A stretch of DNA of 64,000 nucleotides. Source: Escherichia coli O157:H7 (GTDB lineage: Bacteria > Pseudomonadota > Gammaproteobacteria > Enterobacterales > Enterobacteriaceae). The position numbers and the translations under genes are program-made. Below are positions 42,933 to 44,197 of this stretch, piece by piece. The stretch lies in the NCBI RefSeq assembly GCF_013167455.1, contig NZ_CP038328.1; one strand, written 5' to 3'. The notes beneath the pieces were generated by a model. That model saw only the letters and a program-made list of their open reading frames with translations. It ran no database searches and was not told the DNA's origin. Every line of letters starts with the position of its first letter. The first letter of the stretch is position 1.

Positions 42933-44197
42933 ATGAGAAAAATAGTGGCCATGGCCGTTATTTGCCTGACGGCTGCCTCTGGTCTTACCTCTGCTTACGC
43001 GGCGCAACTGGCTGACGATGAAGCGGGACTACGCATCAGACTGAAAAACGAATTGCGCAGGGCTGATAAGCCCAGTGCTGGCGCGGGAAGAGATATTTAC
43101 GCATGGGTACAGGGAGGATTGCTCGATTTCAATAGTGGTTATTATTCCAATATTATTGGCGTTGAAGGCGGAGCGTATTATGTTTATAAATTAGGTGCTC
43201 GTGCTGATATGAGTACCCGGTGGTATCTTGATGGTGATAAAAGTTTTGGCTTTGCCCTCGGGGCAGTAAAAATAAAACCCAGTGAAAATAGCCTGCTTAA
43301 ATTAGGTCGCTTCGGGACGGATTATAGTTATGGTAGCTTACCTTATCGTATTCCGTTAATGGCTGGCAGTTCGCAACGTACATTACCGACAGTTTCTGAA
43401 GGAGCATTAGGTTATTGGGCTTTAACGCCAAATATTGATCTGTGGGGAATGTGGCGTTCACGAGTATTTTTATGGACTGATTCAACAACCGGTATTCGTG
43501 ATGAAGGGGTGTATAACAGCCAGACGGGAAAATACGATAAACATCGCGCTCGTTCTTTTTTAGCCGCCAGTTGGCATGATGATACCAGTCGCTATTCTCT
43601 GGGGGCATCGGTACAGAAAGATGTTTCCAATCAGATACAAAGTATTCTCGAGAAAAGCATACCGCTCGACCCGAATTATACGTTGAAAGGGGAGTTGCTC
43701 GGCTTTTACGCGCAACTCGAAGGTTTAAGTCGTAATACCAGCCAGCCCAATGAAACGGCGTTGGTTAGTGGACAATTGACCTGGAATGCGCCGTGGGGAA
43801 GCGTATTTGGCAGTGGTGGTTATTTGCGCCATGCAATGAATGGTGCCGTGGTGGATACCGACATTGGCTATCCCTTTTCATTAAGTCTTGATCGTAACCG
43901 TGAAGGAATGCAGTCCTGGCAATTGGGCGTCAACTATCGTTTAACTCCCAATTTACACTGACATTTGCACCGATTGTGACTCGCGGCTATGAATCCAGTA
44001 AACGAGATGTGCGGATTGAAGGCGCGGGTATCTTAGGTGGTATGAACTATCGGGTCAGCGAAGGGCCGTTACAAGGGATGAATTTCTTTCTTGCTGCCGA
44101 TAAAGGGCGGGAAAAGCGCGATGGCAGTACGCTGGGCGATCGCCTGAATTACTGGGATGTGAAAATGAGTATTCAGTATGACTTTATGCTGAAGTAA
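42933..44197 (+). pseudogene. uidC: Outer-membrane glucuronide porin uidC (GusC) with 1-bp deletion frameshift near 43955-43960
   Basis: ORF track: 42933..43961 (342 aa, ...WQLGVNYRLTPNLH*) then 43976..44197 in another frame. Span is 1265 nt (not a multiple of 3); frame 2 continues ...LTFAPIVTRGYESSKRDVRIEGAGILGG... to the expected C-terminus, for a recalled full length of 421 aa. Confidence 0.75.

Follow-up and report, generated by a model that had tools for sequence, protein, structure and literature searches.

The uid locus of Escherichia coli O157:H7 raises the question of whether uidC, the gene for a glucuronide uptake porin, still encodes a complete protein in this lineage and, if it does not, what broke the gene and at which point relative to the well-known loss of uidA. 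We consider here the copy found in a stretch of 64,000 nucleotides from one O157:H7 genome (contig NZ_CP038328.1; the whole stretch is referred to as the window). In the window, uidC is the last gene of a uidR-uidABC locus whose gene order is the same as in K-12, O103:H2 and O55:H7. The explanation that we favor, and hold with high confidence, is that uidC is a pseudogene that arose by the loss of a single G, in codon Pro339, in an ancestor of the O55:H7/O157:H7 lineage, and that the truncated channel is probably not assembled, with the uptake step lost.

A missing base in codon Pro339

The gene extends from 42933 to 44197. Its length of 1265 nt from the ATG to the final stop is not a multiple of 3, compared to a length of 1266 nt for the intact gene in K-12, O103:H2 and about 5000 other genomes. 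The constituent parts are as follows.

42933..43961, + strand: 5' piece of uidC, consisting of native codons 1-339, three aberrant codons (N-L-H) and a premature TGA; corresponds to EDL933 Z2619 (AAG56603.1)
43946, + strand: synonymous change ACG to ACT (Thr338), a standing polymorphism
43948..43949, + strand: deletion junction, one G absent between two C's, as located by alignment
43949..44197, + strand: rest of uidC in the -1 frame, from codon 340 to codon 421 plus the native stop
43959..43961, + strand: premature TGA, product of the frameshift

The first-pass annotation of the window, made from the sequence alone, had described a uidC frame that stops at 43959-43961 and a continuation in another frame up to 44197, and this description agrees with the open reading frames (ORFs) as well as with the protein family matches. 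The first ORF comprises 342 codons, starts with the ATG at 42933 and has the C-terminal end ...RLTPNLH. The second is called from 43976 to 44197 (73 aa, corresponding to EDL933 Z2618, AAG56602.1) and ends with the native stop TAA at 44195-44197; its frame is already open from 43904, upstream of the called start. In a comparison with the NCBIfam model NF008479 (glucuronide uptake porin UidC equivalog, 421 positions), the 342-aa piece matches profile positions 1-341 with 686.5 bits, which exceeds the curated cut-off of 510 bits, and the 73-aa piece matches positions 349-421 with 142.8 bits. No continuous frame spans the profile; the two matched sections are located in two different frames.

The lesion was located by alignment of the window gene to the intact uidC of O103:H2 FWSEC0007, K-12 MG1655 and strain 2014C-4587 (each 1266 nt, 421 aa). 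The sole indel falls on the third position of codon Pro339 (CCG), gene nt 1017, where the intact junction reads ACTCCGCAA and the window reads ACTCCCAA. The intact codons CGT TTA ACG CCG CAA TTT ACA CTG (R L T P Q F T L) are replaced by CGT TTA ACT CCC AAT TTA CAC TGA in the window; that is, ACG/ACT-CCG-CAA has become ACT-CC-CAA. The alignment to the 421-aa K-12 gene, which had been proposed as a check, therefore supports the earlier claim of a frameshift by a one-base deletion, as does the difference in length. The site that had been proposed for it, a C lost from CACCTGAC, is not correct. The motif CACTGAC is native and present in intact genes, which at this place read TTTACACTGACA (strain 2014C-4587), TTTACGCTGACA (K-12) and TTTACACTGATA (O103:H2), and the true deletion is situated about 10 nt further upstream. 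Nor is the shorter protein a natural form that K-12 and other intact genes encode by the same string: instead of 342 aa, these genes encode 421 aa in 1266 nt.

We note that the window differs from most intact genes also at 43946, three bases before the second of the two C's that flank the junction. The in-frame ACTCCGCAA version, which combines ACT with an intact uidC, is found in 14 complete genomes. Judged by these alleles, the ACG to ACT change in Thr338 is a separate and older polymorphism that provided the background for the loss of the G. The existence of the intact allele means that one event, the loss of the G, explains the frameshift, and rules out a single complex event that comprises both the G to T change at 43946 and the deletion. 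The lost G is outside any homopolymer. Restoring one G in silico results in a 421-aa protein that shares 420 of 421 residues with K-12 UidC (the difference being A365T), and the rest of the gene is, as far as its sequence tells, undamaged.

In summary of the comparison with K-12 uidC (gusC), the window has the same locus (uidR-uidA-uidB-uidC beside ydgA) and 99% nucleotide identity, and differs by the missing G at nt 1017, which yields a product of 339 native residues followed by 3 wrong ones. A minor difference concerns position 42983, where the window has a synonymous T (Gly17, GGT) and PV15-279, CB9615, K-12 and O103:H2 have C. Among complete genomes, there is no whole-gene match of 100% to the window uidC, and the T appears to be either private to the source of the window or an error there.

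Distribution of the lesion and order of events

A query of 101 nt centred on the lesion was searched in 5426 complete E. coli genomes. The exact lesion allele is present in 322 of them; all other matches correspond to the 102-nt in-frame form, with an identity of at most 98%. Among the matches listed, the best whole-gene matches are O157:H7 strains that have the same length of 1265 nt and 99.9% identity, and the carriers of the deletion share one nearly identical haplotype, as opposed to about 5000 genomes that are in frame. Over a 24-kb stretch, the window and many O157:H7 genomes differ by about one base. At least 1000 contigs are recorded for the exact 342-aa product, and at least 1000 for the 73-aa one. 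In PV15-279 and CB9615, the RefSeq annotation reads "glucuronide uptake porin UidC, frameshifted" (ECpv15279_RS11560 and G2583_RS10265, respectively). In these two pseudogenes, as well as in EDL933 Z2619/Z2618, the lesion and the surrounding sequence are identical to the window, which alone has the T at 42983 and, compared to PV15-279 and CB9615, a GG insertion in uidA. The lesion is genuine, clonal and already annotated, and it is characteristic of the O55:H7/O157:H7 lineage. The recommended check for the same lesion in O157:H7 reference genomes hence has a positive answer, since it is present in reference-type genomes, and it is already known in the sense that it has been part of the public annotation since the EDL933 genome (Z2619/Z2618). 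The break is derived rather than ancestral: most orthologues are in frame, and the intact precursor allele ACTCCGCAA is extant.

The remaining genes of the locus are the following.

38730..39320, + strand: uidR, intact, 196 aa
39711..41524, + strand: uidA, split by a GG insertion at 40395-40396, the classical '+686 GG' (PMC7175801)
41521..42894, + strand: uidB, intact, 457 aa

For the window it therefore holds, as the first-pass annotation had stated, that two of the three uid structural genes are broken and that uidB and uidR are intact. The GG insertion divides uidA into the ORFs 39711..40424 and 40412..41524. At 39803 (uidA nt 93 from the ATG, the diagnostic site near nt 92/93) the window has G, whereas CB9615, K-12 and O103:H2 have T. 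Typical O157:H7 has both the GG insertion and the G allele (PMC7175801), and by carrying them (uidA +686 GG and G at 39803) the window fits the typical uid haplotype of O157:H7 that is negative for beta-glucuronidase (GUD).

What the first-pass annotation had missed is that the lesion in uidC is, on comparison of the genomes, independent of the lesion in uidA and older. The O157:H7 strain PV15-279 is beta-glucuronidase-positive (PMC6256406); it has the G at 39803, no GG insertion and an intact uidA, together with the same uidC lesion. The stepwise model has O55:H7 as its ancestral serotype (PMC7175801). CB9615, the sole O55:H7 genome examined, has neither the G nor the GG insertion; its uidA is intact, and its uidC carries the same lesion and differs from the window gene by a single base. 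Because both strains carry the lesion with an intact uidA, the uidC deletion is older than the GG insertion. The exact uidA GG allele is found in 294 genomes, versus 322 for the uidC lesion allele. On the evidence of these alleles, the uidC deletion arose before the O55:H7/O157:H7 split and before the loss of uidA. Since it predates that loss, the decay of uidC did not follow from a relaxation of selection brought about by the inactivation of uidA.

Both lesions are small indels that shift the frame of a gene in this operon, are fixed in a clonal lineage and remove a step of glucuronide use. They are unlike in that they affect different genes, and in that the uidA lesion is an insertion instead of a deletion and is younger, being absent from O55:H7 and from GUD-positive O157:H7. 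One consequence is that glucuronidase-positive members of the lineage are already without UidC. The porin (GusC) is described as an enhancer of transport by the inner-membrane carrier GusB (PMC9881133), and glucuronide uptake in members with an intact uidA is therefore expected to be reduced, not abolished. Beyond confirming the window as the standard O157:H7 glucuronide-operon haplotype and correcting the position of the lesion, the result has little wider importance; the order of events, with the channel gene lost at a time when uidA, the gene for the enzyme, had yet to be broken, is the only point that we regard as mildly useful. This order was not seen described in open-access papers that name uidC together with O157, most of which were represented by title or abstract.

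The same order allows for a more ambitious interpretation, namely that glucuronide use was lost in steps from O55:H7 to O157:H7, of which the uidC deletion was the first and was selected, not neutral. We think this rather unlikely. If true, closing an Occ-type glucuronide channel could have helped in the bovine gut, and the loss of uidC could have lowered the value of uidA, easing its later loss. The uidC deletion would then also be a marker older than uidA +686 GG that identifies the whole O55:H7/O157 lineage.

Dozens of contigs in large E. coli assemblies carry C-terminal UidC fragments of 91 aa (MGVNYRLTPQFTL...) that retain the intact Pro-Gln site. These fragments suggest that uidC may have been broken independently in other E. 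coli lineages, and such breaks in turn suggest that the gene is often dispensable.

The UidC barrel and its truncation

Sequence comparison alone places UidC only loosely. The match to the Pfam family OprD is weak (E 6e-6), and a PDB sequence search with UidC gave no match. The family is small, with 89 cluster representatives at E <= 0.001 among 1.84 billion, many of them fragments. Full-length homologues have about 420-440 aa, with an alignment that reaches the C-terminus of the query. An alignment of 23 sequences contains nine nearly invariant positions, including D409 and Y416 in the last strand (...YWDVKMSIQYDFMLK), both of which fall in the part that is lost from the window product. Many homologues terminate in Phe or Leu, the residues with which outer-membrane barrels usually end.

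An AlphaFold model of intact UidC, built on the 23-sequence alignment, consists of a large beta-barrel (mean pLDDT 87.8, pTM 0.84). The best PDB matches of this model in Foldseek are Occ/OprD channels (TMq 0.70-0.77, probability 1.00), including OccK2/OpdF, for which there is a crystal structure with glucuronate. The model superposes on OccK2/OpdF of Pseudomonas aeruginosa and OccAB3 of Acinetobacter baumannii, despite a sequence identity of only 13-20%, and it identifies intact UidC with confidence as an outer-membrane channel of the Occ/OprD type. In contrast to these channels, the window copy is without its last four strands. According to the model, codon 339/340 is situated in the turn that joins strand 324-338 to strand 341-353, and the strands 341-353, 361-374, 384-395 and 404-419 are missing from the window product. 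In the model, about 18 strands of the intact orthologue form a barrel that the C-terminal strand closes; the window product would not form such a barrel.

The assembly of outer-membrane barrels by the beta-barrel assembly machinery (BAM) needs the C-terminal strand (beta-signal); barrels that lack this closing strand fail to be inserted by BAM and are degraded. Given the lost strands and the lost conserved residues, we infer that truncated UidC is most likely non-functional. The proposed sequence of events would then be as follows. An ancestor of O55:H7 and O157:H7 would have lost the third base of codon Pro339, such that translation would proceed through 339 native codons and three wrong ones to a stop. 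The product, devoid of the final four beta-strands, the conserved C-terminal one among them, would be unable to close the barrel and most likely would not be assembled, and the outer-membrane step of glucuronide uptake would be lost. Later and independently, the GG insertion in uidA would have given rise to the typical glucuronidase-negative O157:H7.

Two reports on the expression of the truncated gene weigh against this explanation, and raise the alternative that the 342-aa product Z2619, alone or with the 73-aa product Z2618, retains a function or has acquired one, for example as a split barrel or an antigen. Z2619 is listed as strongly induced in cattle faeces, with a log fold change (logFC) of 6.0 (PMC4048457, Table 2), and the same paper cites a study by IVIAT (in vivo-induced antigen technology) in support of expression of Z2619 in human infection, a statement that we take from the citing paper. 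The value for cattle faeces is based on 4 RNA-seq reads (PMC4048457, Table 2). The fragment is treated there as a hypothetical membrane protein. Both pieces of uidC are, moreover, still open frames. Expression of a fragment is not equivalent to function. Other aspects also argue against a functional pair: the 73-aa piece would start at a GTG inside the old gene and would thus be without a signal peptide for the periplasm, 14 of about 18 strands are unable to close a barrel, and the conserved D409 and Y416 are located outside the main, 342-aa product. We therefore regard a functional Z2619 as very improbable.

Still less probable, in our estimate, is that full-length UidC is produced by -1 ribosomal frameshifting or transcriptional slippage in the overlap 43904-43958. 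With the -1 frame open from 43904, a shift at any point of some 55 nt would be enough for an almost native protein, and the frame downstream of the lesion is undamaged. The intact downstream frame is, however, accounted for by the recency of the lesion, as the uidC genes of O55:H7 CB9615 and the window are one base apart. In addition, the two-frame arrangement is not conserved, but missing in more than 5000 orthologues and confined to one clonal lineage. The overlap 43904-43958 contains neither a slippery heptamer of the form X XXY YYZ nor a homopolymer that reaches 4 bases, and recoding was rejected for want of a slippery site. Finally, a sequencing or assembly error that conceals an intact uidC can be dismissed almost entirely: single-base indels are a common assembly artefact and the window does have one private base (42983 T), but the same lesion allele occurs in 322 independent complete genomes including CB9615 and PV15-279, both split products are each found on at least 1000 contigs, and the G was lost outside any homopolymer.

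Further features of the locus

Downstream of uidC, the window contains one additional feature.

44203..44230, no strand assigned: hairpin, G+C-rich and with runs of T/A, situated where uidC and ydgA converge; terminator-like

As uidC ends the operon, with this terminator-like hairpin, shared with ydgA, behind it, there is no downstream gene on which the frameshift could have a polar effect. In K-12, the intergenic region between uidC and ydgA (44197-44242 in the window) has about 180 bp more than its counterparts in the window, O103:H2, O55:H7 and 2014C-4587; this extra length could be an inserted repeat element. A role of UidC as a phage receptor was also considered, and the BASEL collection gives no support for it: the BASEL study has no phage phenotype on uidC::kan.

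A few single-base differences are found elsewhere in the locus. In the intergenic region between uidR and uidA, position 39469 is C in the window and T in both PV15-279 and CB9615. The SNPs (single-nucleotide polymorphisms) at 38912 and 40488 are common to the window and PV15-279 and not shared by CB9615. At 41656, the window shares its G with CB9615, and PV15-279 has T.
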